From: Cladosporium halotolerans
Lineage: Eukaryota
Assembly (NCBI RefSeq): GCF_011745625.1
Contig: NW_027191506.1
Span: forward strand, 1 to 64,000
Direction: 5' to 3'
Length of the DNA stretch: 64,000 nucleotides
The position numbers and the translations under genes were made by a program. Of the stretch, positions 22,590 to 64,000 are shown one piece after another (the stretch's first letter is position 1; the number at the start of each line of letters is the position of its first letter). Below the pieces are notes generated by a model. It did no database searches. It saw only the letters and a list, made by a program, of their open reading frames with translations, and was not told the DNA's origin.

Positions 22590-23986
22590 GGTGGTTTTGT
22601 CTAGATTGCAACCGGGCTGATTTTGGCCGAGTGACCTCAAAAAGGGAAAAAAAGATGAACGCTTCTTTTCCTTCAGATTGGCCGGGTGCATTCTGCTGCA
22701 GCGACTCTCAATATCCGCCTGCTTTATGCAAGAGCTTCCCTGTCGCAGCAAGCCTGTCCGGCCATCGAACGAAAGCAAGACCTGGAAGCCCGCAAGTGAT
22801 ATCTGTCGTCTTCCTCAAGCTAATAGTCCTCGTGCCACGGTTGCCGGCCTTGGTCGCTCCGGAAGACGACGAATCGAGAATGACGTCGAAGATCTCCGTT
22901 CTGCTGAAGCATATGTTTCACCTGTTTGCGAGGCAAGGGGCGCTGTATCGTGTGCTGGACTATAACGCTAACGCGAGGTACGAGGTAGCTAGATGTGGTT
23001 TTGGTCTACTGACGAATGATTAAAAGTGCAGGTTTGGAAGAAGGAAGGACGTTTCGAATCGTGGACGCTTGCTGCGTTGCGATATCGAGTGTTGATACGT
23101 CAGGGCGGAGTCAACAAACGAAAAGCCAGAGCACGCATCATTGTAGCATCGAATTCGCCGCGCTGGCCAATGATGATTGGCATGTGACAGTATGAGTGAC
23201 TTGTGCGGCGACATAGCCATGCGTTCCCAGGCACCTAATGCGACATTTGTGCGAGAGGTCTGGGCGCTTCGGAGTTGCTTGCCGACAAAGTGAGCCATTT
23301 CTGCGCCTTTCAAGCAGGCACAAATGCCACGATGCCCCTTCAAACTCGCCTTACGCCGCTGACGACAGACCATCTTGCTGAGGCATTTCCGCTTCCCGCT
23401 CGGTTTCGCTGGCGAAAAATGTTGGTACAAATTCAACACGATCCAGGACCTCACTACGATCCAAAGCTGCGTTGTGGAGCCAGCTGGTGGCGAATTCGAA
23501 AGACTGAGAGGATGGCTGCGGGCAAGGCGCGAGGAGAAAAGCTGGCTTCCGATTGGCTCGGAGGCTTCCCCGCGGGTTCCAGACCCTGGAATGTCACTCG
23601 AGGCAGGTCCTCCGCCACCTTTACTGCGGGCTGACATGCCCGCCAGGTAGGCGCGCGAGGTCTCGGTAGTGTGCACTTGGTAGGCTCGCTCAGTGCTCTA
23701 GAATGATACAAACGACGACCCTGTCCGTGACAAAGTCGAAAAGAGGTGCCCGTGACATTTATCTGCTCATATCGCAAAGGAGATCTCCTAGGCCGCGCGG
23801 CTGATGCGCTACCCCGCCCGCTCAGCCCCTCTGATCTGCGCTGGCAGCAGTCAAAACTCGTCATGCCTCCCAAGTTTGGTACCTTTCTTCGACGTCCTGC
23901 TCTTTGTCAAAACCTTTCGACAGCACCATCATTCTTCTCCCAGCAGTGAAGTCCCGCATCGGTACACATCCAATACAGCAGCTACC

Positions 23987-32392: not shown

Positions 32393-32749
32393 TTCGTCAG
32401 ACAACGGACGTGTCACGGGCAGATTGGGCGCAGTGTCTTGAGGCTACAGGAAGAAGTTGAGGGGATAGTTTGCAATTCGACAGCAGTGGCAGACAGACTT
32501 TTATGGTCGCTCACGTAGGAGGTACTCGCGGGGCGTTGGCGTCTTGGCCGTGGCGGCAAGCGTCGTAAGCGTCGCGCGCGCTGTATCTGCCGCACTTGGG
32601 GGGCTGTACAACGCAACACCGCCCTACAACAGTGACATGGCCGGAGATTACCGCGTTGACAGCAGACTGATGCCCTTGATCGTCGCCCTTCCCCTCACCT
32701 CCTCCGCTGGCAAGATTTGCCATGCTCGTCGCTGCACTTAGCTTCCAGG

Positions 32750-35634
32750 CTCGCGCTGGCGCTCACCCTTCTTCCGACCTGGAGAACGTAAACCTGCAGA
32801 GCTGGACGCAAAACGGTTCTCGCAAGTACTGGTCCGTCCACAATGGGGCTTCTCCGATTTTGCCTGCCAGCCCGGATAGCTCACCGCGGCGACGACGGCG
32901 CGTGAACGCTTTACACGAGCAAGAAGAAGAACGACTTGCCTGCCGGGATAGCAACATCGTGTACGATGACACGGGGATCGATGATCTCGCCTCCACGAGC
33001 AATTGGATGCACCGAACAAACTGGGCGAAGAGGTATAAGGGTGTGGATCGCAGATTGCTCCTTAAGCTTCGCGGAGCCCCAGCCGCGGGCGGTCAGAAGT
33101 TACATCTGGGCCGATATGGACTGGAAGAAGCGTGCAGCAGCGAGTCTCACGAGACATGTTTGGTCACCACTGGTCGAGCTGTGGACCGGTTTTTCGACAG
33201 GTGTGAGGACACAATACGCCACACCGATCATTCGGTACTGTGCTGGCTACGTGGACAAATCATTGGTCGCCCATACAAAGCCCCGTTCAACCTTCCTGCA
33301 CGTAAAAAAACGACTGCGAAATATCGTGGAATATGGAAAAGCATGATCTTCTTCTATATGCGGCTCTCTTTGTTAGAAGTACGACTGCGCCGTGAATTCT
33401 TACACGTCAGACTATCAAAATCACAGAGCGAGGCTTGTCAACGGCTACTAGCTGCGCTAGAGCTGACGGCAGGTGGCTCTGCGACTTTGTCTTGCGATCA
33501 ATCAGACTCTGATGACGTAAAGACAGCGGGAAAAGCCATATCTCGATCGCAAACGGAGGGGCCGAGCGCGCCATCGAGAAATCTCCATCTGCGACCGCCT
33601 TCCATTGGCTCTGAATCAGGGGAAGAATCCTATGTGGATACACAAGTTGCAGTCGACTCCGGTTGTGACGACTCGTCTGATACCACCAGTGAAGAAGCTG
33701 TTGACGAGATGATCAGCTCCAGCGACACTGAAAGACATTCCTTGTACGCTGATCCGATGGGTCGAGACGAAGCCACGCTTGACAGGTCTCTCTCCCCTGA
33801 TGTTTCGCCCGCTTCTTTACCGTCAGGCATTCCCTCCCCCAGCGATGATGGAATCCAATGTACCTTTGACGATCTGGACGATGCCGTTGCAGACTTCTCC
33901 TATCATCTATGTACGGAGGAATTTGCAAATGGCCTCCCGTCATCAACGGCTGTTGTATACTTCAGTGGAATACTCGGCTTCACACCGGACGGTTCAACAT
34001 TCGAACGGCCAAGTAGGTATACTCCGAAATTGTCTGCTATAATCCACTGCATCCGCCTCTGCATGCTGGAAAGGATACTTCCGCGTTTCCCCCACCCCAA
34101 GATCGGTTGGCCGGCGAGACCACGTGTTGGGGGATTGAAGCGCTTCGCAAAGTTTCGAGACCGCTTCATGTGCCATGGCTGTCAAACACCTGCAGGTAAG
34201 ATTCTAGCCCTGAGGTCACATGGACGTGCGCTTTCCCGTGCCGATGGTCCGAACTTCCGGGTGCATTGGGGCAAAAGCGCCCATACAGTGGGCTGGGAAG
34301 GAGGTTCACTTTCCATGGATCAGCTGCGGAGATTGGGTAGAGAGGCCGTAGATCGGGCACAAAGTTCGATAAAGCGCCTACTTTACGGATACTGTCCCAG
34401 CTTCTCGCTTGGGAAGTTACATGATAGGATGTCAAACCATCGTCAAGGCTACTCCGTCACCGAACCGGCAAATAATTTCGAAAGAGCTTACCTTCAGCTG
34501 TCATCAAAAGCTTGCTTACATCCAGTCGACGGTTTGATGTCTTCCGACGTCTGGAAAATGGACGCTGTGCATCGATATTTCAAAGAGGAAACGAATTTGC
34601 TGCAGAACATCATGCTGATCATGTATCTTCGTGGTGGTCAAGCTCCCCGGACGACCGAGTTCTTGAGCATCGAATGCTACAACGGCCCTAGTACATCGCG
34701 TGGCATTTATATACATGGCGGATCGATCGTCTACGTTACGAGGCATTCGAAAGCGCGGCGTATGACGAACCAGGAATTCCAAGTTGCTCGGTTTTTACCA
34801 AAGGAGGATTCAGAACTTGTCGCAACATATCTCGCAATCATTCGACCGTTTACGGACATGTTCAATCGATTTTGTCTAGGCTATGATCGGGAGCGTCGTT
34901 TGATGTTCGCTTCGTCAGATAAGGTCGATAGACATTGGCAATCTGATGTCCTCACAAAGGCATTGAAGAGGCTGACTCAAGAAGTGTGTCTGCAGTCTTT
35001 CGGCGTCTAGATATATCGCCAGCTATCGATCGCGGTCACCGAGAGACACGTCAAAGATATCAGTCGGCCGTTCAATTTGCACGATGACAGGAGTATGGCT
35101 GCCGATATCGAGGTAGTATTCGCTTCGCAAAGCGGTCACAGACCGATGCAACGCGGGTTTAGCTATGGCATCGATGCTGCTTACCCAGATTCTTTACAAC
35201 CGGCTCTACTCAGGGTGTATCAATGGGTGTCGCGCCGTTGGCATGAATTTCTTGAGACACATGAAGGGCCATCGCGAAACGTGATTTTAAACACACCAGC
35301 ATCGCAACTTAACGGAGGCACTAAACGACGCATCTCTGATGGAAGCGAGGGCAAAGAAATTAAGCGCTTTCGTATCAGCGATGTGCGCCAAGACATCAGC
35401 GTTGAACGGACCCCGGGCAGAGGATTACTAGCTTCTGCTTTGCAGAGTAGGGCACAAAATCGCTACGATGAGACGAAACATCCTGGAGCCGATGAGCATC
35501 ATTCGGGTCTACTTGATCCAGAGCCCCTTTCAAGCAATGCGTTTCAAAAGAGGAGAGGGATCGCTGAGTTTTTTGAAGAACAAGGGAGATTGTCGAGGAA
35601 GGAAGTTTCTAGGCCCTTTGAACTTTCAGACTAG
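32750..35634 (+). pseudogene. 5'-truncated DUF3505-family gene with a tyrosine-recombinase-like domain and no helicase (copy A)
   Basis: ORFs 32722 and 35077 are in one frame, split by TAG at 35008 (probably CAG). Motifs are LQSW...YWSV, NWMHRTNW, YTPKLSAII, GGQAPRTTEF (R), HSKAR (K), IYRQ (R), QSGH (H) and FSYG (Y). Confidence 0.75.
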
Positions 35635-35692: not shown

Positions 35693-38600
35693 GCACGTTC
35701 ATAATGCCGCGTTGTCCTCAGCCGCTTCTAGCCTTCGCAAGTCGACCTGACAGGAAAGACCCGACCGTGCGATCCGTACAAAGGGCCAAAGAGTCTTGTA
35801 ACGTATTTCGGAATGGCGCTTCGATTCGTCTCGTATTTTAGCAGGGTCGTCGCGCCCGACGAGTATCACTTCAGCCCGGCAGCGGATAACGATGGCGAGA
35901 CGATGAGACCGGAGGATATCATCCAGGCGACAGAAGAGCAGCTCGTGGTATGGAAAGAGATACACGAGATGGCAAAGCAGATGCGTATGAATGAGCAAAC
36001 AGGCACCGACGATGACGATGAAGAAGGCTACAATAGCGATTTAAAAAACCGCCTTCTACAATTATGGATGCTTATCATCTGCCACGCGACCGGTGCTCGC
36101 CGCTACGAATCGCCGCTGCTGAGTTTCTGCGCCATGCTGAGCATAAAGCCGTCCACAAAAAGTTGGATGGAGCCTGGGAACTTCAACAGCAATCTTTCGG
36201 CTATCATTTGGATTGTACAACTTCTAGTGTTTTACGACAGCGCCCTGAAAGAACAGCAGGGTTCAGGGAAGACGCTCAAGCTGGTGAAAGCCTACTGCGA
36301 CCAGTATGTCCAGCAGACCGTCGAGACGCCGATGGGAGAAATCCTTAGATGGCGTCTGTTGTTGTTCAAAGTGTCGGGTGCAAGCGTCGGAACTCATGAA
36401 GCGTCCTGGGATGAGCACGAAGAGGTACTGACCTATGAGGACACCGAACTCCGGATGGATCAAATCCCAACTCTACTTACATCCGAGTATCAGGAGTGTT
36501 ATCAGCTCCTTTACGATGATCTGATGCTCGGTCTCCAAAGCCTCCGTCGAATGAGCCCTCGTCTCCTCAAAGATGGCGTCAACGTCGACACCGTCCGTTG
36601 AAACTTCACCCAGCACAGAGACAACGCGACGGTTCTTAGTGGCACAGAAACCGCTTTGACGAAAGCAATTGAACGATCGGAACAACTGTGTCGGATTTTC
36701 ATCGTCGAGAGCGATCAGTCGCCCGGCGGATGGGCGTGGAGGGAGAGCGCAACGGCCAGTTACGAGGCCACCGTGCAAGAGTTTCTGAAGCGGCTCAGTG
36801 TCTTGATACACATCAGCGGCGGACAACCCGTGCGAGAGAGTGAGTTCTTTTCGATGACATACCGCAACACGCAGCGACGGCGGTCCATCATCGTTCGATT
36901 CGACCGTGTGATGGTTCACGTCCAATACCACAAAGGCCAGCAGCAAACCGGAACGTACAAAGAGAACGTGCGGTTTCTCGCCAATCCGATCGCGGAACTA
37001 ATGCTCGACTACATGGTCTACGTTCTGCCGCTGCGAGAGAGATTCCTGCGGCAGACTTCGCCTGGGTCCTTACTCTCTCCCTATCTCTGGGAAAAGGATG
37101 GAAAAGTGTGGCCCGAGGGTCATCTGAGTCGCTATCTAGAAGAGGCAAGCGTTCGGGCGTGCGTGCCACGACTTCACGTCGCAAACTGGAGGCAGATTTC
37201 GGTCGCCATCGTCAAAACGAAGTTCGCCGGCCACATCGAGTAATTCGATCCAGACGAAGGCGACGAAGACGGGGAAGAGACTGCTCCAATCATCCGAATC
37301 ATGACCGACCAGCGCAACCACAAGACGCGGACGGTGAACCGCGCGTATGCTAACCAAGCCGGAGCAGTGTTCAGCAACCTCTGGGATGGAAAGGTGCGGA
37401 TGGGCCTGCAGGCTTCCACTCTATGGCAGGACTTTTGGGGCGTGGAGGCGATCCTCAAGAGGAAGAAACGTGGGCGAGTCGGGCAAGAGTCTCGCTTGGC
37501 GAAACGGGTCGCCAAGGGCATCTATCGTCCTCGCAAGCCTTGGTCCACAGAAGCTCTCCTGGGAGGCGTGAAGAAACTATACGGCAACAAGGACGCAGGC
37601 TGGAAATCGACCGAGCAGGCGCAAGCTCTCACTGCAATCATGTCGTGGAATGAGCAGGTCGTCGTCATCCTACCCACGGGAGCTGGGAAGAGCTTGCTTT
37701 TCATGCTCCCGTGTACCCTGGCTAACGCTGGGATAACGATACTCATCGTACCGCTCGTCTCACTCCACGGAGATATGCTTCGGCGTATAAAAGAGTTGAG
37801 CATCGACCATCTGGAGTGGCATCCAGGCGAGACTCGAGAAGCCGCCTTGGTACTGGTCAGCGCCGAAGCCGCCTCGTCCAAGGATTTTATCAAATATGCT
37901 CGGAGGCTTATAGCAGAGCAGAAGCTCGATCGGATCGTGGTCGACGAGTGCCACCTAACCGTAATTGCGGCCGAGTACCGACCCAGCATCGTCGAGCTCA
38001 CAGCAATCCGGAGCCTGAGAACTCAATTTGTCTACCTCACAGCCACTCTTCCGCCATCTATGCGGGCAGAGTTCGAGGAGAGGAATTATCTGCATCACCC
38101 CACGGTAATCAGAGCGTCGAGCAATCGACCGAATATTCTCTACGTGGTGCGTAAGGCTGGTGCCCACAAAGGGAGCCTACTCGAACAGGCTAGTGTCGAG
38201 GTCGAAGATGCTTGGACGAAGTCTGCCTTGTTCGATCACTCTCGCGATAAAATCATCCTCTACGTTCGGACGTGCAAGGATGCGGACGACTTGGCAGAGC
38301 TGCTCGGTTGCAGCTCGTATACTGCCGAGAGTGGGACGCCAGCGGAGAAGAAGCAGATACTCGATCGCTGGATACAAGCTCCCGAGACGCCCTACATCGT
38401 GGCGACGACTGCTCTAGCCGAAGGGTTCGACTATCCGCACGTGCGACTCGTCATGAACGTAGACGAGCCGGAGTCGTTGGTCATCTTTGCCCAAGAGTCT
38501 GGTCGGGCGGGACGGGACGGGAAACGTGCATATTCGATGGTATTACTTCCCGCAACCTGGCAGCCTCAGGTCTCAGATGTTCCGTTGGACGAGCCGCACG

Positions 38601-39226
38601 GGACGAACAACTACAGAGATGACCCAACACTTCGGAAGCGTCACGACAAGGAAGCAGCGCATCGCTACCTACTGGGCAAGCAATGCTACCGGACGTCCCT
38701 GAGTGACTACTTGGACGTCGCTCGCCATCGAAGATGGTGCATGCCCGAAGATGTGCCTTGCGACATTTGCAAGGTGGCCCATCTGGACATGATCGAACCC
38801 GTGGAGAAGGTCGAGGAGGACGACACACACACAGGGCTTCAGCTCATCCAGCAAGAAAAGCTCCGGACCCACACAGAACTAGCACAGTATCGTCTGGACC
38901 TAGCGAGCTTGAAGGGAACGTGCTTGCTCTGCAGGACAGCCAGACAGGAATGAAACCATGATTTCTCGACTTGCCCACGGCGTTTTGACATCTTTGAAGA
39001 AAGGAACAAAGCCAGGCGACAGTTCGAAGAACGAGGGCAGAAATGGCTGCAGGCATACACAAGCTGCTTCTGGTGTCTGAATCCGCAATCGATCTGTCAA
39101 CAAGCGGAGCTGGGTAGCAAGGGTGGCAGAGGTTGCGAATACAAAGACATTGTACTCCCGCTCTGCTTCGGAGTTTTCGAGAGCGTTGAAGGGCTAGGGT
39201 GGCTTTACGAGCAGTTCGAGCGGGAG
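35693..39226 (+). pseudogene. 5'-truncated YR-like domain fused to a RecQ-type SF2 helicase and a Cys-rich C-terminus (telomere-linked-helicase-like, copy B)
   Basis: ORFs 35813, 36656 and 37301 share one frame broken only by point stops. YR motifs are GGQPVRESEF, YHKGQ, NWRQ and QRNH...RAYAN. Helicase motifs are LPTGAGKS, VVDECH, YLTAT, ATTALAEGFD and QESGRAGRDG. Cys clusters are CYR...CMPEDVPCDIC, CLLC and CFWCLNPQSIC. Confidence 0.88.
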
Positions 39227-39235
39227 CAGAGAGGT

Positions 39236-40609
39236 TGTGACGAGACGCGTCACGTACGGGTGCAAGCGCTAGTGTGACGATTGAGAGAGCGAATGGTGGG
39301 GTCGGCGAGTAAGCAGGTGGTTAGTGCAAAGACAGGCGGACGTGACGGAGAGCTGTGGGATGTATGGTTTCAACCTCGGTGCAGGAAGGTTGAGGGAAAA
39401 GAGCTGGATAAGGATGGAGGGAAAATGTATTAGAGTTGTAAATGTACTAGTCGAGTCTCTCTAGCGTGAAGTCAAGATTTTGGATTGAGGTAGTCTCAGA
39501 ACGCAACCGGTATACGATAAAATAAACGAGAGTGAGAGCTAAAAGAAAAAGTAGGAATAGACAAGCGGGGTGGAGGAAGCAAAGGTCCGAAGTTTGGGTG
39601 TAGAGGGAGTTGAGGGTGCACCAGAGCAGGGCTGAGGGTACGACGAGCGAGAGGTGGTAAGAGTGTGGAGTTGTGGATATGTCCGTAGGTGCGGCTCGTC
39701 GAGGGCGATAGGCTGGCTGGAGGGCTCCCGGCGGGTTGGTGTGCGTTAGCGCGGCTGCAGGAGCGTGCGCGGCTTGCTCGAAAGTCCGGGAGGGCGGACT
39801 GGAGTGGAGAAGGCATAGGATGCGTGAAGACGGAACAAATCGGCAAGAGGTTGACAAGTGGATGTTTTCGGGTGCAGCCGTTAGCGACAGGTGCGAGGGA
39901 GCGAAAGGGAGCAGAGGTGGTGGAGACGAGGGGTGCGGGGGATTGAGATTAGCAGGCAGATGTAGGGGAGGGTGGAGACTGCGAGCCAAGGCAGGCGGAT
40001 GATTGAGACGATTAGTATGCATTAGGGCGGAGAGAAAGGGGAAACAGCTGCAGGGCGGCTGAGCGGCTACGGGCTTGAGAGGCTGTGAAGCTGCAAGGAG
40101 AGCCGGGGGCTCGGGATAGGGAAGATGGTGGGACACCGAATGGTCGGGATGCCGGCGAACGGGGGCACTGAGAGTTGCATCGAGTGGAGCGGGGGCGAGG
40201 AACGGTAGGACAGGAATCAGGCGAGAGGAGGGTCTGATCAGTGCGAGAGGAGGAGGATAGTAATAGGAAGGGTAAGTTAGGATTGGAAGCAACCTTTAGG
40301 GGTGAGTACGGGAATGATAGAAGGCGGCAAAGGGCAGATTAGTGAGGGAGTCGCTTGAGATGGCAAGAATGGAAAGAGTGGCAGATCAGTGATCGATGAG
40401 GCAAGAGAGAGCAGAAACGCATAAACAGAGAAGAAGAGGTCGGAAAGGCGGAGACGAGGCAAAGATAAGAGAAGCATAGAGTTTTGGGTGACTGGTAAAA
40501 GAGGTAGGGCTGCGCCAGCATATAGAGAGGGGGTGGTATTGAGTCGGCAGGTTTGCAGTGTATTGGTAAAGAACTATTTGAAGACGCCATTGTGGCAGAG
40601 AATGTCACA
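39236..40609. mobile_element. ~1.37-kb noncoding segment with TGTGAC...GTCACA ends, possibly a solo LTR
   Basis: 8-bp inverted ends GTTGTGAC/GTCACAAC and a strong purine skew. It starts where the helicase gene is cut off. No TSD was seen. Confidence 0.4.
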
Positions 40610-40927
40610 ACATGGACGAGACCGGAGTCATGCTCTGCATGCTCGGGTCAGTCAAAGCTCTGATGAGAAGGGACGACCGATCAAATGATCAAGGTGCACG
40701 AGGAGGGCGGGGCATGGTCACGGCGACTCGTGCCGATGGTAGATTTTGAGCTCTTTGATCATTTGGCCCACGGCCACGCATAGAAGCAACTGGAAGACGC
40801 ACCCACACCAGCATGGTTCCATGCGTGTTCGAAGCCCTAACAACGGCTCAAAAATGAGCCTGAGAAGAGGTGACCGCAGACTAAGAACGGGCACAGGGTA
40901 CGCAAACAATACCAGTCCCTTGATAAG

Positions 40928-41515
40928 TCAATTGTGATGCGCATCCTCTGTAGTGGTATGTCCGCCTTCAAATCTGGTTTCTTGTCCAGCCTTCACTTCG
41001 TACACAAGATGATCCGCTTGGGCTCCAAGGCGGAGTTTGGCCAGTATCCACGTAGCTTGTTGATCGGAACCATTCCGAAGGAAATTCACAAGATCCCTCA
41101 AAGTTGCCAAATGCTCTTTTGCTCGCGCTAGTTCCTCTTCGAGCCCGATTTGACGCTGAGCTGAGGCTAGCATCTTTTCTTTCATTTCTGCATGTCGGGT
41201 GAAACCCTCCCTGACGTCCCACTCACAAGGGAGATTCCGGCGGCAACAAGAAGCACAAGTCGGCCTCTCCCCCGAACACTTCAGCTTTATCTTCCGACAA
41301 TTGGAGCAAGCCGCCCAGATTGGATTAGATCTCCTACGCGGAGGTTTTGGCCGAGGGGTCGATTCCGCTTCAGAGTCTGCTCCACTTGCCGGGCTTTTCG
41401 AGAGCGAAGAACCGCGCATCCCATTGGCGTTATGTGTACTGCCACTGCCATCTCCGGCATTATGAGGCTGCTCTTGCCTAGGCTGCATAGACCGGCGATC
41501 GGATGGTTTCCCCAT
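40928..41515 (-). CDS. Small Zn(II)2Cys6 transcription factor (195 aa, no middle homology region)
   Basis: ACSNCRKIKLKCSGERPTCASCCRRNLPC, followed by a coiled coil and LRDLVNFLRNGSDQQATWILAKLRLG. Confidence 0.88.
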   Translation of the reverse strand: MGKPSDRRSMQPRQEQPHNAGDGSGSTHNANGMRGSSLSKSPASGADSEAESTPRPKPPRRRSNPIWAACSNCRKIKLKCSGERPTCASCCRRNLPCEWDVREGFTRHAEMKEKMLASAQRQIGLEEELARAKEHLATLRDLVNFLRNGSDQQATWILAKLRLGAQADHLVYEVKAGQETRFEGGHTTTEDAHHN

Positions 41516-53573: not shown

Positions 53574-54039
53574 CTTAATGCAATGTGACAAGCTTATCGA
53601 CAAGCGCTTGTGATTGGAATGAGGTTGAGATTTAAGAATGCGGCCAAGCTGGGAAGCTACATTGATAGAGCGAATTATGTGGTTGACTGTGTCGTAATAA
53701 GTATGTCAGTTAGGCTAAGGTGAGCTCTGTCATCACGGTGACGTATGCTCCTGTCCCAGATCGCTTGCCTTGAACGTGGGTAGCTTGAGGCTAATCTGAT
53801 TATCATTCCTGACCATAACCAATTGGTTAGACTACTGCAAACAGACACAGGCGCACGCGTCACTACGCGGAGCGCGTCGATCGTTGTAGCTCGGTGTAGC
53901 GGACTATGCATTACACCAACTCACCCTCTATCACCCCATGTCACAGCGAACTACGTCGACAGCTTCCCACTTTTCGACGTTGGCGAGTCTGTACACAATG
54001 GCGCATGGCCAAATGCCGTCCTACTCAGCAACACATCTA

Positions 54040-55900
54040 TGCCGATGTTTGTCAGACTATCGCATACTCATCTGTCTCGGTTGCAATTATGCCGTCCCTC
54101 TTGCCAACCTTCGCAACTATGTACGGACACACCAGCGCGAGCGTGGCAGTGAAAGCGCCCGCGAGTGGATGCAAGATCTCTCGCGTTTCGACTTGCTCGA
54201 TCCGACTTGTGAGGCCGTGAAATTCCCACTTCCCACTGCTCTCCGATACCTGACCTTCCTGGGTTCGACGGGTACGCCTGTGTCGTGTGATCCTTGGCTG
54301 CACGTCAGCTTTCATCGATGAAAAAGCATCACCGACAAGCTCGCCCTTCAGACAAAAAGCCTGACCGAACGTGAGCTGCGTGCAAATGTTATCATCGGAA
54401 TACCCAACGACGGGTGTCGACCAGATGTCAGCACTTCTTTGTGCGAGGGCCACAGAGTGCATAGTTCTACGTGAGCGGAACAAGCGCTATGAACCAGCAA
54501 AGTACATCGAGCCAATCCCCGACGGAGTCGCCCGAGCAGCTGCCTCTAGGAGGCCAGATGCTGGAACATGTTCTAGCTGAGCTGGCAGCATCCGAGATGC
54601 AGCTCGAGTGAGCAGCAGACGGAATCTCGAGCGATGAGCCCTGAACCGAGAATATCGCAGTGGTTGCGGATGACACGATGGCCTCGATATCTACAGGGTC
54701 ACAAATCATCCCTGGCAGCTCCCCTCACAAGCCTTCCTATCGCGGGAGTCGGACCTTTACTCGACGTGTTTGTTGCGAGCTTGGACCGACTGGTCGATCA
54801 GGCGCGCGACTCTTTTTCGGAACAGAGAGTGAGTGTCTTCGACCAGGCCCTAATCAAGCGGGTCTTCCCTGAGCACAAAAAGCATCGGACTCCAGCCCTT
54901 CTTACGCTTCGAGGTCAGATATGTCGCAAGGACACTGGTATTTGGGCTTGGCTTATATGCTTTGCATATCAAACATTCCAACCTTGGGGGGACAGTGACC
55001 CAATGGCTGAACTGACTCACCGGATAACAAAGACGCAGGCTAGCAATTTACAAAATCTTACGAGCCTCGGCCGCCGGTTTCTTTGAGAGGATCGAACACA
55101 ACCGCAGATGATCAGACACAGATCTTACTCGATCGCACATGCTTGCTATTCTTTTTATCCTTGATCGATCGTGTGCTTAAGAGTGACCTCTTAGAAACCG
55201 TGGTGGTGGGTTCCCTAGCAGTCACCGGTATTGACGCGAAAAAGCAAATCGTTTGGTTGCCCGCAGATTTCACTCCGCTACTTTCAGGTCCAATCACAAT
55301 CGGTCAGATGCTAGTGATGCAGTGAAACGTAGTCGCTATGAAGCGCGGGAAGAGAACCTCTCCATCTGAGATTGTTACACCGGATGTACTCTAGACTCCT
55401 TGCTGGCCATATTTCCTTGCCACTGAGATGGGCTATCTGGTTGAGGGCTTATGATAACAAGATGAAAAGTGCTATGACAGTCGCAGGGACCTTCTGCAAG
55501 TCCGACAACGATAGCGCAGAAACATTGAAACGGAGCGCGGAAATTGCCTAATCCTATCTAGACCGGGTCGACTCCTTTCTCGAACGACTTTTGCTCCTCG
55601 ACCAAACAACCTGCGGACAGCCAGCGCGTGGCACAGAATTACACACGCTCTGCCATAGCAAAGGACATCTCGGGAGCCATCGAAACATCTTCGTCGAGCA
55701 GGGTCTAGTGGGTACAGTCACTGCATATCAAAAAAGCTATAGTACTACCGGATTCACAACTATTTACCTGCGCGAGTAGGGGAAGCCCACGCCTACTATC
55801 TTTGGGTATTCCAGCCCCCTTACTAACAATTGAAGCTCTTGGCGTTTCGTAATACTAGCGCACCGTCACCTTACCTCTGGCTTGCAGGGAAGAGTAGCTA
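54040..55900 (+). pseudogene. Degenerate DUF3505-YR family gene (copy D)
   Basis: YRILICLGCNYAV, ISQWLRMTRWPRYLQG, FTPLLSG.ITIGQMLV, CGQPARGTEL (catalytic-type R), RNIFVEQG and TAYQKS. It has many stops and frameshifts. Confidence 0.78.
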
Positions 55901-57928
55901 GAGCGCAATGCGGCTGTCAAAGGTACGCGAGCGGAAGTCTTCCATACACATCTGTCTACAGGCAGGTTGCGATAGCCATGTCTCGAGCACATCTTCCAGG
56001 CGCAACTTTCAAGCGCTAGCAATCTATAGAGCAGCGAGTGCTTGACCGTCAAGCTGCCCGCAGCTCCTGGCAGGCTGCATTGACGTATGCTCGCGAGGTT
56101 GGTGGCTGCGACGGTTATGTACACAGACAAGGGAACAGTATCGGAAATCAAATCCTTGACATCGATTTCACGGATTTGAAGGCTCTGCCATGGCACCACG
56201 CCAGAGGGCCCTTCCCGATCTTGTGAGCGTGACCAAGATTTCAAACAAACGAGGGAAAGGTATGCTACCTACAACTATTTCAGCCTTGAGAGCAGTGCGA
56301 AATTTTTACACAAGAGCGATAGGAATTGTTCAGATCGCAATCGTGTATCGTGATACGGCCCCTGGAGAAAGATTGTGAAACCCAATGGTACTCACGATCA
56401 GTACGCGTCTTGTTCTACGAAGAAATTTCAGGTTTCTGGCTATACCTATCGAGTTTACTCCTGAGCTGTGTCTGCATGACGATGGCCTGCAATATCTGCT
56501 ACATCAGGATATGCAATATGATACGTCTGTCGAAACATCAAGATTCTAAAAGAGCTTTAGCGAAGAAGAGACAGCTGTAAGGCCCAGCATACCAGGGGTG
56601 GGTTCAGCTATATGCAGAGGGAAGGCATAGCTAGGCAATTGGTTAAGGCGACGTGTGAGAACCGCGAGTAATGTCTCCTTTTAAATCCCTAGTACAAAGC
56701 TACTTCGAAGTCTGTTCGCCAGATGTACGACTCCGAGAGCTGAAAACCTGCATCACAAGTGCGGCGGCCGGAGTACGCGGCGATTCATTTACACTAGAGC
56801 ACCAACGTAAGGAATGTTACGAAACGCTACACAACCCTGCCGCAAAAGAAGGCCTTCCTTGACTACAGCTCACGCGATGACCTCTATATCTATATGGGCA
56901 CTGCCTTCTCGACTTCACTGCACTAGTTCGCAGCCAGATGTCAAGCCCGAGGGTTAGGGTTTTAGCCTTTAAGGGTTCATTGACTGAGTTATGAAGCTAG
57001 TCTACCTTTGCACCTGATCCAGCACGCGACAGAATGCGAGCCATTTGTTTCGGCTTTGAGATCTCTTCTAAGGAGGGGGGCACTTTCTATACATGATGGT
57101 ACCCTGAGAGAGTGTCACGGAAGGAGTTCGACGGTGAATGTAAAGGAGTTACCCTACCCACAATCCTACCCACAATCCTTGCGGGCGTTAGTGGTGTATA
57201 GCGCACGAGAGCGAAGGAAGGACGAGGTCGAAGGGGCAATGTCGCAGGGCATGAAGCGAGAGGAAGCAGAGAGGACTGCGTCGACGGTGTTGCAGAAAGT
57301 AAAAGCGTCGGTGCACGATTTCATGACACTACCCACAATCCTTCAAAGCACGAAGGGTTCGTTCCTTGATAATGTATGGGCGCACGGACCAGCGAAATTC
57401 GCGAGAGGGGGTAGATTCCATGAAAAACGAGGGGTAGGTGGAATGAAAAGTACTGAGTTGAGAGTCACGAAAATTTGCCAAACTTCAATTCGCCATCACA
57501 TTACTCGAAGAATTTTTCACACGGGTGTAATAGATGCTATCTTGGGGCTGTTGTGATGGATCGAAATCTCACAAGTCAAGTTTGAAGTTGCACCCGGAAA
57601 GCCCAGAATAAGGGTTAGGGTAGTGTAAGGCTGAACGGTCATGCTGTCACGGTCGGTAAGCGCGCGGCTAGAGCGCTTTTCGGAGAGCATACAGATATAT
57701 GATTCGGCGTGGAAAAATGCCGTCAAAAGATGCATAGAGGGCATCGGGCGTTTGATTGACTTGACCAGGTGCTGAGTAGATAGTCAAGCACTCGATCAGT
57801 AGAGAACACGAGAGCGTCCCACTTGCAGGGGGTGTGAAAATTTGTGCCAGGTATAGATACCAGGGGCGAGATAGCACTTTCTTGCAACGAGCAACTTGTA
57901 AAAGTCCCAGTATCTCACGCTAGGAGCC

Positions 57929-58135
57929 ATGGACACATTTGAGAAGCTATTCGTTCACTATCCGCAGTTTCAAGTCATCGTCTGCAAACATTGTCAATTT
58001 GCTGTTGTTCCCGGTCAGACAAAGGCGCATTTGAGGCAAAGCCATAGCGCTTTCGCATTGAGCGTCAGGAGAGAAATCGAAGCATTCGTGAACACACTCA
58101 CAGACGTTGCGCATCGACACGAAGAAGTCTACCCC
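57929..58135 (+). pseudogene. DUF3505 N-terminus (copy E), cut off by the AT-rich block
   Basis: MDTFEKLFVHYPQFQVIVCKHCQFAVVPGQTKAHLRQSH. Composition switches to CpA/TpG-depleted DNA near 58130-58160. Confidence 0.82.
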
Positions 58136-58654
58136 CCACGGGTCCCCGGTGAGACCGGGCCCTCCCCTACTTATACCGGTCCTCGGATAACCCCGTCGAT
58201 CCTTCGATTTTTACCTCGACGGCTATCGTAGCTACGGGGCTCTACCTATTTTTACTATATACCGGATTACTTAGACTATAAGGGAAAAATAAAGTCCCCC
58301 TTCTAGAGCGGATTATAGAGGCTAGAAAAATAAATAGGTCGAGGGAGCTAAGTATCCCGAGGCTAGATATTCCTTATATCTTAGCCGTCTTAATTTTCTT
58401 AGGCTATTCCTATTTTTTTACGGTAGTATAGGGTATATACTACTTATACCCTAAATATCTAAGCCGGAGAAAATCTAATACCTTTTAGAAAATTAGCCGA
58501 AGGATACTTAGGAGGCCTAGGGTTAAAGTACCTATAATTCCTTAAGTATATATATTTAGAGGGTAACTCTTAATATAATAAGCTTAGGGAGGTAAACTCT
58601 ACCTAGTATATAAGTATAGGTATCCTAAGTCTCTTACTTTTAGATATAGTAAGA

Positions 58655-59150
58655 TTAGGGTTAGGGTATATTTAGTATAATACTTAGCTAATTTTATCTC
58701 GAGCCCTCGATTTTTTTAGAGCTTAATTCTATTTTTCCTATATAGTCGAATACTAAAAGAGTCTAATAAAAATAAAAGCTAAATAGGAAAAAATCGGAGA
58801 GGCGAGATAAATTTCCGGTAAAATATCCCTTATAATTTAAGGGCGGATATTAAGGTTATAGCTTTATCTAGATCGATCTTAGAGATAGATATATCTCAGA
58901 AATATAAGCTTAGGGTAGCCCCGGTCCCCCTAGGGTAGTTTATAGATTTAAATATAAGGATATAATAATTATCTCTATTATACTCCGGTTAGAGGTAGGG
59001 TTAGTAAAGTATTTAGCTAATTTTAACTCGAGACCTAGATTTTTTAGGGCTTAGCCCTATATATCCTATATAGTCCTATACGGATAGAATTTAGGAAAAA
59101 TAACGGTTAAGTAAATAAAAATCGGAGAGACGAGATAAAATTCGATAGAG
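58655..59150 (+). repeat. Two diverged ~170-bp direct repeats (period ~335), each headed by a TTAGGG-like motif
   Basis: TTAGCTAATTTTATCTCGAG...CCTATATAGTC...AAAATCGGAGAGGCGAGATAAAATT (58684-58813) matches TTAGCTAATTTTAACTCGAG...CCTATATAGTC...AAAATCGGAGAGACGAGATAAAATT (59013-59142). Confidence 0.8.
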
Positions 59151-59254
59151 TTTTCTACCTTTTTTTTAAAGAAAGTATTATCTAACTATTACCTATATTT
59201 AGAAGATATATCCCGCTAAGTATTAAGAGATCTATAGGAATTATCTACTTTTCT

Positions 59255-62200
59255 TTAACCTTTCTTAGGCCTTCCTCTCTTATTAGTCTTTATCCTTTTA
59301 GGTCTTCCTCTTCCCTTCTTACTAGGTTCTCTCTTCGGAGTATTTTCTTTTATATTTAAATTAATATTAATCTTCTCTTCTTCTTCTCTTTCTTTTTCTC
59401 TTTCTTCCTCTTCCTCTTCTCCTTCTTCTTCTTCTAAAGATAGACTATCTCGATTAATATAAGATCTTTTAGAGTTAATATTAGATCTAGCTATACTAGA
59501 ATCTCTCTCTTTACGAGAATTAGATATAGATCTATTATCTAAAGAGCTATAAAAAGCTAAAGGCGGAGTAGCTAGTTCTAAATTATCTAAACTTAAATCT
59601 ATAGGATTATTATAAGTAGGAGATTCTAAATTAGTAGTATTAATAAAATCCTCTATTTCCTTATTTTTAGGAGGCGATTTAATATTATCTAAAGCTTTTA
59701 GATTAGTAGAATCTAATTTATTAGTATATTTATTAGTATCTAAAGAATTAGAGCTAGAATCTATGATAATTCGCTTATCTAAATTAGGTATATTCCTTTT
59801 AGAAGATAGGTTCTTATTTAATATATTAGAAGAGCTACTAGACGAGCTACTAGAAGAGCTACTAGTCGAACTTCTCTCTAAAATATCCTTATCCTTTATA
59901 GTAGTAGGAGCTATAGAATTAGCGTTAATATCTAAAGATTTAAAGCTAGAGCTAGAGCTAGAGCTAGAACTAGAACTAGAACTAGAGCTAGAGCTAGAGC
60001 TAGAACTAACCCTAGAATTAGATTTTAGTAGATCCTTAGGATTAAAATCCTCTATTATAGTATCTATAGTAATATCTTTATCTAAATTAAAATAATTAAA
60101 GTAAATTTTAGAATATTCTAACGATCTAATAGTTATATCTCTAGTTTTATTACTAAAATAGTTCTCTTCTCTAGCGTAGTTTAGATTAGACGTTAAGCTA
60201 GATCTATTAGCTAATATATCCTCTATTCTATTAGGTTCTTTTCTTTTATTATTATTATTTTTAGTAGGACTTAGTAGGTTAAGATTATTATTAAGAATCT
60301 TTTCTTTAATTATATAAGTAATTAAATACCGATAAGGCTTTAGGGTTAGACCTTTACTAAAGTATAGTTTAGTCTCTCTAAAAAGTAAAATACTTAATCT
60401 AGTAGAACTTATTAAAGTCTTATTATTTTTTAAAAAAAGCTTAGTTTCGATAGTTTTATAGTTTAGGTAAGTAAAGTTAAGATAGTCGATAAACGGTCTA
60501 AGGATAGTAATATAATATATAACGACTCTAGTAAGTCGAGGAGGTAGATATCTGATATTTTTATTATCTAACTTAGTAAAATCTCGACTTTTACTATAGC
60601 TAGTATTAATAGCTATTAAGTTAGACTCTCTATTAAAAAAGATATTTCTAAATTTACTAATATTACTATTTTTATAATTTAGAATAATAATTTCTTCTCC
60701 TCTTAGAGGACTACTAGTTAATAGATAGATATTTAATACTAGTAATTCTAGAAATCGATCTAGCTTTTTAAGATATTCCTTTATATTACTTAGGAGGTTA
60801 TCTCCTCTATTAAGGAAGTTATTAATAAGGGTATTAGGATCGAGAAAGCGCTCGATAAGTATATCTCTAAACCTACTTAGATAAGTAGTAGTAGATAGGT
60901 TATAGTAAGGAGTTCTATTATCTATATTATCGTCTATTCTCGAATAGTCTATATCGATAGTATTATTATAAAGGCTATCGTTTTTAAAGAGAAGTAACTC
61001 TCTAAAGAGTAAACTCTCTATATTAGTTAAGATATTATTAAATAGATTTTTTAGTCTAGGTATATAAATATTAATATTATCGATAGCGATCGTATTATTA
61101 TCGATCTCTCTAATCGGTTTATAAGAGCTAACTATTTTATAATTATAATATTTCAATTTATTCCTAATATAATATAGTTCGCTAAAATAGTTATTAGAAT
61201 TAATACTTAGAAGATTTTCTAGAGTACTTTTAAAGAATAGAGTAGGATCTTCGATATAATCCTCTTTACTATAAATCTTATAATTTAAATATCCGAGAGT
61301 ATATAATCTACTATTATATATAATAGCCGAAATAGCTTTTTCTAAAGTATCTTATCTTTTAAAACTATTAGAAGTCCTTTCTAAACTTCTTATAATATAG
61401 AAAGTTAAGGTAGGATTATTAAAGTCTCTATTAGATAGAAGGTCGACTTCTAACTCTATAGAGAGAAGTTTATTAAAAAGTTTAAGAATAAGTATCCTTA
61501 TATTATATAATTCTTTAGGATTTAAGGTATTATCTTTACTATTAGTTAGGATTTCTTTATAATATTTTAGGTCCTCTATAATATTTAATATATCTTCGTT
61601 AATAATAGGCGTATTATAAATATCTTTAGATTTAGTACTAATATTATAGATATAGACTAGTAGTAAGCTAAATTCTCTAAAGTAGGATCTTTTCGTTTCT
61701 TTCTCTAAAGCTTTAAAAGGTCTAATCTCTCTATTAGTAGAATTAGAATTAGTATTATTAATAAGTATTCTAGTACTTAGAGATAATAAATCTATATCTA
61801 AGGATATTTCGTCTCCTAAAGTAATAGTAAGATTATAGAGTATATTTAAAAAGGTATCTTTAGCTTCTAAATCTTTATAGATAAAATCGTTAAGGATAGA
61901 TAGATCTTTTCCTTCTAAGTATTTATAAAAATTAGTAGTTCTATTAAGGAAAGATCCTTCTTTATTAATATTAGTAATAGTATCTTCCTTATATATAGTA
62001 GAATTAGCTATAGTATTATACTCTATATTGAAGTTATTAATTAGATCCTTAGAAGAAGGATTATTTAAATTAGATCTAAGTCTTAAGTTAGAGCTCCGAT
62101 TAGAGCTATTACTATTAGTTATATTAGTATTAATATTAGGTAGCTTAGGTATAAAGGTTATAGTCCTATTATATTTAAAACCTTTAATAATAGTAAGAGG

Positions 62201-62778
62201 GATATCTTCTAATATATTAGGATTCTTAATATTACTAATACTCTTAAGCTTATATTTATCGATTAAATATATAGATACTACTTTATAATTAATATTAGTA
62301 AAAGAATCTACTTTAGATTTATACCCTTCTAAAGTTAGAGGTAGGTCTTTATAATAATATTTATTAAATTCTAATTTTTCTAGATCCTCTAAGGAATAAA
62401 ATCCTTTATTAGTTATAAAAGGCTCTATAGTATTAAGAATTAGATTAGTAGATTTTATATTAGTTTTATTATTAGAAAGATAATCTTTAAGGTGATTTTT
62501 CTACGAAAATATTAGTAAAAGGACTTTTTAATAAATTAAAGAATAGATAAACTTACTTTTAGGTGGTTTTTTATAGTATTATAAGTAGGATTTATATATA
62601 TTTTACACTTTCGGCAAATTATTATCTTTATATCTTCTAAATATAATATAGGAGTATTAGGTAGACCTATAGTAGAGCTAGGTTTAATTTTATTAAAACT
62701 ATCCTTAGTATAAGGCTTTAGATCTTCGAGAAGATTATTAAAATCTACGTTAAAATAATTCTTAATAAGGTTCGACAT
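59255..62778 (-). pseudogene. Full-length DUF3505 C2H2 + YR-like + AT-hook gene (copy F), ~1155 codons, 2 exons, one internal TAA
   Basis: Exon 1 is 62778-62557. The intron 62556-62501 reads GTAAGT...TACTAAT...TAG. Exon 2 (62500-59255) is in frame with the 633-aa ORF. Hand translation finds only one internal stop, at 61352-61354. Motifs are ICRKC...NHLK|KNH, SSPLRGEE, YSKSR, PYRY, ANRS...NYARE and GRGRPKR...RGRPKK. Confidence 0.85.
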
Positions 62779-62924
62779 TTTTTAAAAGTAATAGATCTTT
62801 TAAAAAGATTTTTAATTTAGTAAAATCCGAGGGATAGTCGATAAAGTAATCGATAAAGTAATAATCGATAGAAAAGAAGAGGAAAGGGTAGAGAAAGGAA
62901 AAGCGAAAAAGAAGTCCTTAGATC

Positions 62925-63037
62925 TTCCCTATCTACCCCTCTCTACCCTTCTCTACCCTTCTCTACCCTTCTCTACCCTTCTCTACCCCTCTCTACCTCT
63001 TTCTACCCCTCTTTTCCCCTCTCTACCCCTCTTTTCC
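62925..63037. repeat. 10-bp tandem repeat (CTCTACCCYT)n upstream of copy F
   Basis: About 10 consecutive units such as CTCTACCCTT, CTCTACCCCT and CTTTTCCCCT. Confidence 0.9.
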
Positions 63038-63418
63038 CGGTAGATATATCGGTAATAAGCCCGGCTTTATTAATAAAAGAAAAGGGAGCGGACGGAAGCG
63101 GAGCCTTAACCCTAACCCTTAGATAAAGACGAATATAATAATATAAATAGTCCGGATTTTAATAGTAATATAGAAGGATTAAGTCTAAGGGAGCCTTAAT
63201 TATTACCTACTAATATATTCTCTTATCTTTAGAGATAATAGTAAGTACTTTCTCCTTTATAAAAAATAATAAAAAGGCTAGTTAAGATTACTAACTAAAG
63301 TTATAGATTTAGTTATAAGCTTTCTAGGAAAAGACGTTTATACTCTCGACTTTATTAAAGAGACTAGAGAGATCTATATTTCGAGTTCTTTAAGCTCGGA
63401 AAAAATTATCGATCTCCT

Positions 63419-63622
63419 TGTTACAGTGAAGTGAAGTCAGGACTCAGGTCACATGACTTGGTCACGTGACTCGGGTCGGGTCACGTGACTCGCGAAGCCA
63501 CGCCTGGAGGGCGCTTGGCAGCTGCGTACGGCTCACCTGCGGAGCGTAGGGGACTCGTCCGCAAAGTAGCGATTAGTCTTGTACTGGGAGCAGTGATTGC
63601 TCAGCAGTGTCCTATACGTTGC
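63419..63622 (+). repeat. GC-richer, non-RIP LTR-like fragment inside the AT-rich block
   Basis: It starts TGTTACA, contains three GGTCAC(A/G)TGACT units and has normal CA/TG content. No matching TAACA end was found. Confidence 0.6.
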
Positions 63623-63643
63623 GAGATTTATCTTTTTAGATAA

Positions 63644-64000
63644 TCCTTTATCAGTCTCCCCGATACGACTCTATTAAATAAAGTAGGAGATAATCTAATA
63701 GACTTAGACTACTTTAAAGATCTTAAGAAAGTCCCGTACTTTCTAGATAGAATAATTACGCCGGGAACTCCGTATAATACTAAACTACTTAAAGGACTAA
63801 AAGATAATAAACTAATCTTTAAATCTAATAAAATAGAGAAGTATAATAGGGATATTAATCGATTTCTAGAGTACCTTACTCTAGCTATCCTATTATTTAG
63901 CGGAGGTCCTTTAAGAGCTCCCGAGCTAACTACTATAATATATAAGAATATAGAGTCGAAGAATCGCTCGCTACTTTATAATAAAGATAATAACCTATTT
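63644..64000 (+). pseudogene. CpA/TpG-depleted YR-family fragment (copy G), running off the window
   Basis: The open frame reads ...IEKYNRDINRFLEYLTLAILLFSGGPLRAPELTTIIYKNIESKNRSLLYNKDNNLF. This is homologous to FLELLVLNIYLLTSSPLRGEEIIILNYKN in copy F. Confidence 0.8.

Follow-up and report, generated by a model that had tools for sequence, protein, structure and literature searches.

The 64-kb window analysed here (positions 1 to 64,000 of contig NW_027191506.1 of Cladosporium halotolerans) contains a two-exon gene on the minus strand, at 62778-59255, with a spliced coding sequence (CDS) of 1155 codons. The encoded protein carries two OrsD-type C2H2 zinc fingers at its N terminus and two AT hooks at its C terminus, with a domain between them that is predicted to have the tyrosine-recombinase fold. 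The gene lies in an AT-rich island with the dinucleotide signature of repeat-induced point mutation (RIP), and it probably represents a single-gene, Crypton-like mobile element, in a copy that was inactivated recently and from a clade that has been under purifying selection while saturated by RIP. The coordinates of the features are listed in Table 1.

The predicted intron falls between the two His residues of the first finger (H72 and H77). In the window gene and in two intact relatives from metagenomes (loci L003 and L004, described below), the exons differ in frame, and the intron must therefore presumably be removed. The L003 and L004 introns, of 53 and 54 nt, occupy the same position in phase 0 and share the GTAAGT, TACTAAT and TAG signals; their interiors differ. 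No second intron able to excise the internal TAA was seen on reading the sequence. The first-pass annotation, made from the letters of the window, had proposed a 56-nt intron with a TAG acceptor, about 1155 codons and one stop at 61352-61354, and all of these coordinates were borne out.

Between 59255 and 62778, the GC content is 24.6 %, and CA and TG occur four and five times, against 142.5 and 185.5 expected (observed-to-expected ratio, o/e, 0.03 each). The loss of AC (o/e 0.52) and GT (o/e 0.82) is far milder. The protein has no Gln, no Trp, one Met, two Cys and two His. Nine CA/TG doublets remain in the CDS, five of which encode M1, C55, C58, H72 and H77, that is, the start codon and the C-x2-C-x13-H-x4-H ligands of the first finger, while the other four fall in one TTG codon and at three codon boundaries. 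The composition described previously (about 75 % AT, no Gln or Trp, Met only at the start, Cys and His only in finger 1) holds in every item, and the estimate of about ten CA/TG doublets, five of them at these residues, agrees with the count of nine. The dinucleotide and codon count proposed at that stage places CA+TG at 3 % of expectation.

This depletion is not confined to the gene. The GC content of the window is ~0.48-0.60 per kb up to ~58.2 kb and then 0.22-0.38 to the window end, and the 100-nt bins, which hold 15-16 CA or TG each immediately before 58201, hold none from there on. RIP-affected DNA is recognized by a TpA/ApT ratio above ~0.89 and a (CpA+TpG)/(ApC+GpT) ratio below ~1.03. 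In the 500-nt bins starting at 58501-62501, the former is 1.34-1.73 and the latter 0-0.11, as compared to 1.07-1.35 for the latter in the GC-normal bins starting at 56001-57501; from ~63000 the island is less depleted (0.33-0.40). The island is thus RIP-affected DNA by both indices, and its non-coding flank (58501-59254) is depleted to the same degree as the gene.

Since ATG is itself AT-rich and Met is nevertheless depleted, AT-richness alone does not explain this composition, whereas TG-to-TA mutation does. The codons that RIP can convert into stops (CAA, CAG and TGG) number 0-1 per CDS in the depleted genes, as compared to 33-44 in the GC-normal open reading frames (ORFs) of the window (550-946 codons). 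CGA codons are kept (2-9 per gene), which fits a CpA-specific process. RIP was probably the mutational force.

Maintenance of the reading frame

The coding frame of exon 2 has one stop in 1081 codons, as against 45, 99, 111, 224 and 259 stops in the other five frames. In 300 first-order Markov sequences with the same dinucleotide content, 119 ± 9.5 stops were found (minimum 94). RIP was simulated as complete CpA/TpG-to-TpA conversion of three GC-normal family ORFs and one host gene from the same window. The family ORFs acquired 35 stops in 762 codons (32722-35007), 33 in 550 (37301-38950) and 22 in 289 (35732-36598), and the host P-type ATPase gene 44 in 946, which amounts to one stop in every 13-22 codons; a gene as long as the window copy would receive roughly 50-90. 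Neutral drift from the L003 CDS with the observed substitution spectrum, to 32.7 % divergence, yielded 45.7 ± 5.8 stops (minimum 28 in 300 runs), whereas the window copy has one and both L003 and L004 have none. The open frame is neither chance nor plain RIP. The first-pass annotation had argued that passive RIP cannot easily explain the frame and had proposed simulating RIP on GC-normal homologues as the check; the simulation did not produce near-intact frames.

A metagenome scan for the DNA of relatives returned 18 loci, and among them are stop-free copies of the kind the annotation had suggested looking for. L001-L003 represent one locus in three samples (99.8-99.9 % identical including the flanks, with 1-2 differences per 3264 nt), with a spliced CDS of 1163 codons, no stops, a GC content of 0.25 and a CA+TG o/e of 0.06 over the matched stretch. 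L004 is open for 1224 codons up to the contig end, with a CA+TG o/e of 0.03. These two loci share the CA/TG-free composition and the intron position of the window copy; relatives have diverged to 38-55 % identity. Other loci have decayed: L005 has 6 stops, L006 15 and a frame change, L008 10 and two frame changes, L007 8, and L012 and L013 4 each. The existence of these decayed loci shows that a CA/TG-poor composition alone does not keep frames open.

The doublets that survive are not scattered. L004 retains 13 CA/TG in 1224 codons, all inside Met, Cys, His or Gln codons and none at synonymous or boundary sites: the start codon, the four ligands of each finger, the His of the Arg-His motif, the His of LANHS, Q477 and C887. 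Thus, 11 of the 13 lie at start-codon, zinc-ligand or recombinase-motif positions. Of the 24 in L003, Met, Cys, His or Gln codons contain 14, and in the mildly depleted relative L010 free sites account for 95 of 208.

Crude estimates of the ratio of non-synonymous to synonymous substitution rates (dN/dS), by the Nei-Gojobori method (NG86), were 0.48 for the window copy and L003, 0.57 for the window copy and L004, and 0.64 for L003 and L004. By region, the recombinase core gave 0.28-0.46, the N-terminal and middle portions ~0.5-0.6, and the poorly alignable Ser-rich tail 0.8-1.5. Values below 1, which the annotation had named as a sign of selection, were therefore obtained both overall and in the core.

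Protein architecture and family

Pfam OrsD (PF12013) matched exon 1 at E 0.001 and 20 bits, under its 26.6-bit gathering cut-off, a cut-off passed by 11 of 12 scanned relatives (31-77 bits); the exon-2 pieces gave no Pfam match. An alignment of the window protein with six close relatives (A1) contains a conserved block of SSPLRG, YSKSRD, NIRYLPxRLT, YR[H/Y]LITYIIK and LAN[R/H]S...NYAR. The AT-hook pair (RGRPKK...KRGRPKK) is present in five of the six aligned relatives and absent from P0004, which ends earlier; the Pfam AT_hook model matched one of the seven members (E 0.017).

The AlphaFold2 model of the central region, built from a 49-sequence alignment, reached a predicted local distance difference test score (pLDDT) of 88.3 and a predicted template-modelling score (pTM) of 0.82. 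In a Foldseek search against the PDB, ranks 1-28 were all recombinases, albeit at weak E values (0.04-1.3), the best being XerA, Cre, XerH, XerD and the Tn1549 integrase. VIA-align, run on 48,161 chains, gave nine with Z of at least 8 (8.0-10.8), all of them Xer, Cre, integrase or topoisomerase IB. The best was Xer 4a8e (Z 10.8, root-mean-square deviation 3.3 over 167 residues), followed by XerH (9.4), XerD (9.1 and 8.6), XerA (8.7), Cre (8.3), topoisomerase IB (8.2) and integrases (8.2 and 8.0). We therefore call it a tyrosine-recombinase-fold protein, on the strength of the predicted structure, from a family without a Pfam model, and the "recombinase" of the first-pass annotation finds support at the level of the fold.

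Tyrosine recombinases have the catalytic order R...K...H-x-x-R...H/W...Y. In the aligned proteins, SSPLRG, YSKSRD, KPYR[H/Y], LAN[R/H]S and NLNYAR follow in this order, and candidate roles were assigned from the motif order and the Xer/Cre motifs, not from superposition. R600, R724 and Y775 are invariant in A1, and K254 of a second alignment, A2 (equivalent to K637), is at least 90 % conserved. The family departs from the classical layout by a Lys in place of the first His and by an Arg or His at the H/W position. The protein may have recombinase activity.

A word-indexed search returned 15 related proteins, and a profile search of 1.84 billion representatives returned 928 clusters at E of 1e-3 or below, 307 at 1e-10 and 74 at 1e-30. 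Each of the first 15 relatives has at most one Trp in its 680-1758 residues, and in 7 of the 15 Met occurs just once. Among 161 family proteins, the summed content of Gln, Trp, His, Cys and Met is below 2 % in 36 (18 of these being 600 aa or longer), between 2 and 6 % in 59 and 6 % or more in 66, and reaches 13-17 % in members of normal composition. P0020 (1283 aa) combines 1.0 % of these residues with 35 % Gly, Ala, Arg and Pro and 15 % Asn, Ile, Lys, Tyr and Phe, so that its RIP-sensitive residues are low without AT-coding overall.

DEAD and/or Helicase_C domains were also present in 9 of 12 scanned relatives of normal composition. Fungal proteins with OrsD and DEAD/Helicase_C (RecQ-like) domains carry the same putative recombinase-fold domain, for which Pfam has no model, between finger and helicase (P0007-P0015, P0030, P0039, P0070, P0073, P0121 and others).

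Maximum-likelihood analysis of 85 core sequences (quick search of IQ-TREE, supports from the Shimodaira-Hasegawa-like approximate likelihood-ratio test) groups the window copy with P0001 and L003 at 99 % support. The enclosing clade, also at 99 %, comprises 16 rows, 14 of which have less than 2 % Gln, Trp, His, Cys and Met and two 3.2-3.6 %, with end branches of 0.01 to 1.2 changes per site. In the other half of the tree, 29 of 34 rows are of normal composition and the remaining five belong to the middle class.

The substitutions within the core bear on how this composition arose. At positions where Trp is common in relatives of normal composition, the depleted group carries F, L, I or Y; one such column is made up of 15 F and 10 L (25 sequences). 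RIP transitions turn TGG into TAG, TGA or TAA, so that F, L, I and Y are unreachable from Trp by RIP. The appearance of family Trp as Phe or other residues had been remarked upon in the earlier reading, and the motif pair it cited, SFLNRTTNFYKYLEG / SQWLRMTRWPRYLQG, is present, with SQWLRMTRWPRYLQG in the GC-normal ORF 54577-55086. The core His columns contain the RIP-type Y as well as the non-RIP R, N and S, and the LANxS position is divided between 11 H and 11 R. Opposite the Gln residues of close relatives stand mostly K, N, E and R, and opposite their Met residues L (24) and seldom the RIP product I (2).

Table 1. Positions of the gene, its parts and adjoining features within the 64-kb window
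Feature	Position	Strand	Remarks
AT-rich island	58201..64000	.	CA/TG-free from ~58201; holds gene, reaches window end
Tandem array of a 10-nt unit, CCCTCTCTAC x 10.6	62927..63032	.	upstream of gene; 20-nt deletion in X6
Upstream stretch aligning with L003 and L004	62779..62914	-	~120-135 nt; probably 5' untranslated region or promoter of the unit
Exon 1	62557..62778	-	74 codons; ORF extends to 80 aa before a stop
Start codon ATG	62778-62776	-	in exon 1
Zinc-finger-1 ligands in exon 1	C55 62616-62614, C58, H72 62565-62563	-
Intron (predicted)	62501..62556	-	56 nt, phase 0; GTAAGT, TACTAAT, TAG acceptor
Exon 2	62500..59258	-	1081 codons; terminal TAA 59257-59255
Finger-2 remnant	62252..62317	-	S136, D139, Y152, Y157 at ligand positions
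Internal TAA	61352..61354	-	codon 457; sole internal stop in spliced CDS
Modelled recombinase-like region	60011..61351	-	447 aa; AlphaFold2
Candidate active-site R (SSPLRG)	60703-60701	-	motif order
Candidate active-site K (YSKSRD)	60592-60590	-	motif order
Candidate active-site R (KPYR)	60331-60329	-	motif order
Arg-His position	60326..60328	-	TAT (Tyr) in window; CAT (His) in X6
Candidate R at H/W position (LANRS)	60205-60203	-	motif order
Candidate active-site Y (NLNYAR)	60178-60176	-	motif order
Ser-coding hexamer repeat (AGCTAG)n	59944..60022	-	length-polymorphic
C-terminal tail, two AT-hook cores GRGRPKR...KRGRPKK	59258..59329	-	alignment

State of the window copy and nature of the element

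The internal TAA aligns with Glu in P0001, P0002 and P0003 and with GAA in L003, which makes it a transversion-type stop, not a product of RIP. A check of the stop against raw reads had been proposed; contigs rather than reads were compared, and those of all four public runs (four studies) agree with the window in the TAA and in the stretch around it. The finger-2 ligands C, C, H and H, present in L003, L004, P0001, P0002 and P0006, are all lost in the window copy. The allele of run X6, which is at least 99 % identical to the window, has an in-frame 36-nt deletion in the Ser repeat and differs in the CDS by four non-synonymous changes, R/K, A/D, P/S and Y/H. The last of these, CAT against TAT in the Arg-His motif, is what RIP would be expected to do to one of the last CpA, although a single transition is not assignable to RIP.

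The terminal branch of the window copy (0.26) is comparable to those of intact relatives (0.15 and 0.23), and its identity to L004 (0.38) is like that of L003 (0.39). Most of its history therefore appears to have passed under constraint, with an inactivation that looks recent. The copy is probably recently dead, and the branch length, identity and allele data fit the description "recently inactivated" in the first-pass annotation. Inactivation "by its one stop" was right as regards the stop itself and incomplete as regards the cause, since finger 2 is lost and the Arg-His motif has its H-to-Y change as well. "Largely immune" was too strong: 9-24 CA/TG remain, largely at essential residues, and they are still RIP targets, one of which (H to Y, 60326-60328) the window allele appears to have lost relative to X6. 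A family that is RIP-tolerant rather than RIP-immune fits these data better. The broader proposal of a putative transposon adapted to RIP is largely supported at the family level by the intact relatives, dN/dS and the open frame.

We propose the following course of events. Repeated rounds of CpA-to-TpA mutation would have removed every CA/TG dispensable for the protein, and lineages with Gln (CAA/CAG) or Trp (TGG) codons would have been killed by RIP-made stops. The survivors would have replaced Gln by residues like K, E, N, S or L and Trp by F, L, I or Y, keeping CA/TG only at irreplaceable residues, namely the start Met, the zinc ligands and the His of the active-site motif. Such a recoded gene could pass through RIP with few or no lethal hits. 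The later damage of the window copy would comprise the G-to-T type stop, the loss of finger 2 and the RIP-type H-to-Y change in the Arg-His motif. An intact member would be transcribed and spliced, and its recombinase would excise and reintegrate the ~3.7-kb unit, with the zinc fingers and AT hooks supplying DNA recognition and the AT hooks favouring AT-rich DNA. Whether this is called adaptation or a mutation-selection equilibrium of element lineages is partly semantic, as the lineage stays coding under a gene-destroying defence either way. A further step, for which we would not quite claim even chances, is that the window copy represents a widespread, partly still active Crypton-like lineage with a RIP counter-defence, in which a codon vocabulary that CpA-to-TpA mutation cannot turn into stops is combined with AT hooks that steer the element into the RIPped compartment, where it persists.

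Several observations weigh against a recently inactivated Crypton-like element of a constrained family. No RNA run was listed among those containing the stretch. No contig skipping the intron was found, nor did any of three runs guessed to be RNA join across it, and a contig from such a run covers the intron unspliced; these three look like DNA contigs, and they carry no evidence on expression. No element ends, target-site duplication or empty site emerged from the repeat scans and the flank comparison with L003 and L004: the DNA similarity to these loci stops ~120-135 nt upstream of the ATG and short of the stop codon, and the inverted- and direct-repeat scans gave only short AT-rich chance-like pairs, one direct repeat in the 3' flank and the 10-mer array. 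The intact DNA loci are two independent ones, and the intact proteins are automatic ORF calls. All four coding differences between the window copy and X6 are non-synonymous, which fits a dead copy and is silent on the family.

The same caution applies to the selection, fold and tree analyses. The dN/dS values come from a crude method (NG86) applied to saturated dS and an extreme composition; the saturation and the small set of permitted codons should bias them upward. The recombinase assignment is one of fold, and Z values of 8-11 are moderate given the size of the model. Curated recombinase models (Phage_integrase and others) gave no match in the Pfam scans of three window pieces, seven A1 members and 12 relatives, no recombinase was among the PDB sequence matches, and the classical H/W position is Arg in the window protein. 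The grouping of depleted rows in the tree may partly be compositional attraction, as 47 rows were flagged as compositionally deviant.

Among the other explanations, the one that survives best, though we consider it unlikely, is a domesticated single-copy host gene that binds AT-rich DNA and owes its composition to RIP leaking in from neighbouring repeats. Such a gene would suit a locus that contigs of four runs, each from a different study, show in one and the same place with 99 % identity or more, and it would also suit the presence of the stretch in 20 runs of 15 studies, AT hooks apt for a chromatin role, the lack of detected element ends and an X6 contig depth over the gene equal to that of the flanks (depth is not copy number). 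A host gene would hardly be expected, however, to carry a premature stop in all four runs, to have lost finger 2 and to have alleles that differ only non-synonymously. Nor would it be expected to have five family members within one 64-kb window, three degenerate copies (L005, L006 and L008) in one metagenome assembly and two in L014, or 928 clusters with many fragments, while keeping the candidate catalytic R, K, R and Y.

A composition unrelated to RIP, in an element from or adapted to an AT-rich genome and transferred into the fungus, is very improbable. Distant relatives are indeed AT-rich with a milder CA/TG loss (L017, GC 0.15 and o/e 0.46; L010, GC 0.24 and o/e 0.37), but the loss in the window gene is specific to CA/TG (0.03, against 0.52 for AC and 0.82 for GT), and Met occurs only at the start codon even though ATG is AT-rich. 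The non-coding flank of the island has the same signature within a genome of ~53 % GC, and states of the H-to-Y and TTG-to-TTA type match CpA-to-TpA changes.

Little credence can be given to the idea that the window copy still functions, by read-through of the stop or as a zinc-finger protein cut short at 456 aa. All four runs have the stop, finger 1 and the start codon retain five CA/TG doublets, and the terminal branch (0.26) might be read as no longer than the branches leading to intact relatives (0.15 and 0.23), but the loss of finger 2 and of the Arg-His His, together with recent coding changes that are non-synonymous in four of four cases, argues otherwise. That the gene is a dead, fully RIPped relic with an accidentally open frame, from a family never under selection, is scarcely credible: the window copy is itself broken, but fewer than 28 stops occurred in 0 of 300 Markov and 0 of 300 neutral-drift simulations against one observed, stop-free relatives exist at 38-55 % identity, and conservation is concentrated in the core.

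A recently dead copy of a mobile element from a RIP-saturated but constrained clade can be set beside known systems. Fungal Cryptons are reportedly tyrosine-recombinase DNA transposons, in accounts going back to Goodwin et al. (2003) and Kojima & Jurka (2011). The window family resembles them in its single intron-bearing gene of a few kb, its predicted tyrosine-recombinase fold and its fungal host, and likewise in having no reverse transcriptase and no evident terminal inverted repeats. Fungal Cryptons carry a GCR1_C domain, whereas the window family has N-terminal OrsD fingers and C-terminal AT hooks without GCR1_C, gives no sequence-level match to any recombinase model, includes many relatives fused to a superfamily 2 (SF2)/RecQ-type helicase, and is RIP-saturated yet coding. 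It would work most like a Crypton-type element, as a candidate rather than an assigned member of the Cryptons.

The Starship "Captain" proteins (DUF3435) are likewise reported as tyrosine recombinases of fungal mobile elements, in genomes of the Pezizomycotina type (PMC10104507). DUF3435 gave no match at E of 1 or below in the seven A1 members and three window pieces, nor at E of 0.01 or below in 12 relatives, and the window unit, at ~3.7 kb, has no cargo. The subtelomeric helicase gene TLH of Magnaporthe is another point of comparison, for which RIP-like changes are mentioned in the discussion of RIPCAL (PMC2621366). P0007-P0015 and the window member at 35732-39277 have OrsD and DEAD/Helicase_C domains and may resemble TLH-type RecQ-like helicases; the window gene, by contrast, has no helicase domain. 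Ordinary RIP relics share the loss of CA/TG, the gain of TA and the AT-rich compartment, but they are riddled with stops, whereas the window family keeps frames of 1100-1200 codons.

The idea of an escape from RIP is not new. For the long-terminal-repeat element crapaud of Podospora, an arms-race hypothesis of this kind was tested and rejected (PMC10787394); the escape of the window family would differ in consisting of codon and amino-acid recoding of a gene. Our literature search, outside which most subscription journals lay, found no report of a transposon coding sequence adapted to RIP, nor of this recombinase family. Passages of PMC12543289 and of bioRxiv 10.64898/2026.10.20.760510 contained nothing that bears on either.

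RIP is seen as a near-terminal defence, after which repeats become stop-riddled AT-rich relics that annotation pipelines discard. A family that stays coding at 25 % GC implies that purifying selection can outlast saturating RIP, gives the arms-race idea a concrete and testable example, and suggests that AT-rich isochores may hide live genes. It also offers a natural experiment in which the last CA/TG doublets would mark the truly irreplaceable residues of a recombinase and its zinc fingers, and it exposes an unannotated, putative recombinase-fold domain within the large fungal OrsD-RecQ helicase family. If the counter-defence is real, it would be the first example of adaptation to RIP in the coding language of a transposon.

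Other features of the window

Five family members are clustered in the window. Besides the gene, a second AT-rich family fragment lies at 63647-64000 (+). It is of the helicase-bearing type, 60 % identical to residues 626-740 of P0009, partly CA/TG-depleted (ratio 0.33-0.40), and runs off the window end. The contig depth over it reaches 300, as compared to 20-47 over the gene (X6 and X12), which hints at a multi-copy repeat, depth not being copy number. Three GC-normal superfamily members are located at 32680-35634 (+), with an in-frame stop at 35008-35010; at 35732-39277 (+), which is interrupted by frame changes at 36601/36602 and 37243/37244 and leads into a RecQ-type helicase ORF (37244-38953); and at ~53890-55817 (+). 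The last is "copy D" of the first-pass annotation, and the ORF holding SQWLRMTRWPRYLQG (54577-55086) belongs to it. A GC-normal ORF at 57902-58231 (+) has an OrsD-like first finger (VIVCKHCQF...HLRQSH) and ends where the island begins (~58201); another family copy may be represented by this unmutated head, its body having been RIPped or displaced.

The 3' flank of the gene contains a direct repeat (58665-58815 and 58994-59143, ~329-nt spacing, 77-83 % identity), and the 5' flank of L003 contains 164-175-nt tandem arrays. Elsewhere in the window, a GC-normal 699-aa ORF at 3432-5531 (+) has Exo_endo_phos_2 and RVT_1 domains, as in a retroelement resembling long interspersed nuclear elements (LINE-like), and is not RIP-mutated. 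The ordinary host genes include those for a PHO4 phosphate transporter (8650-10071, -), a ferric reductase (13873-15921, -), an alpha/beta hydrolase (21294-22691, -) and a PCA1-type heavy-metal P-type ATPase (29115-31955, -). GC skew is strong at 39001-41000 (+0.43 and +0.33 per kb), where the minus strand has low-complexity ORFs rich in Pro and Ser.

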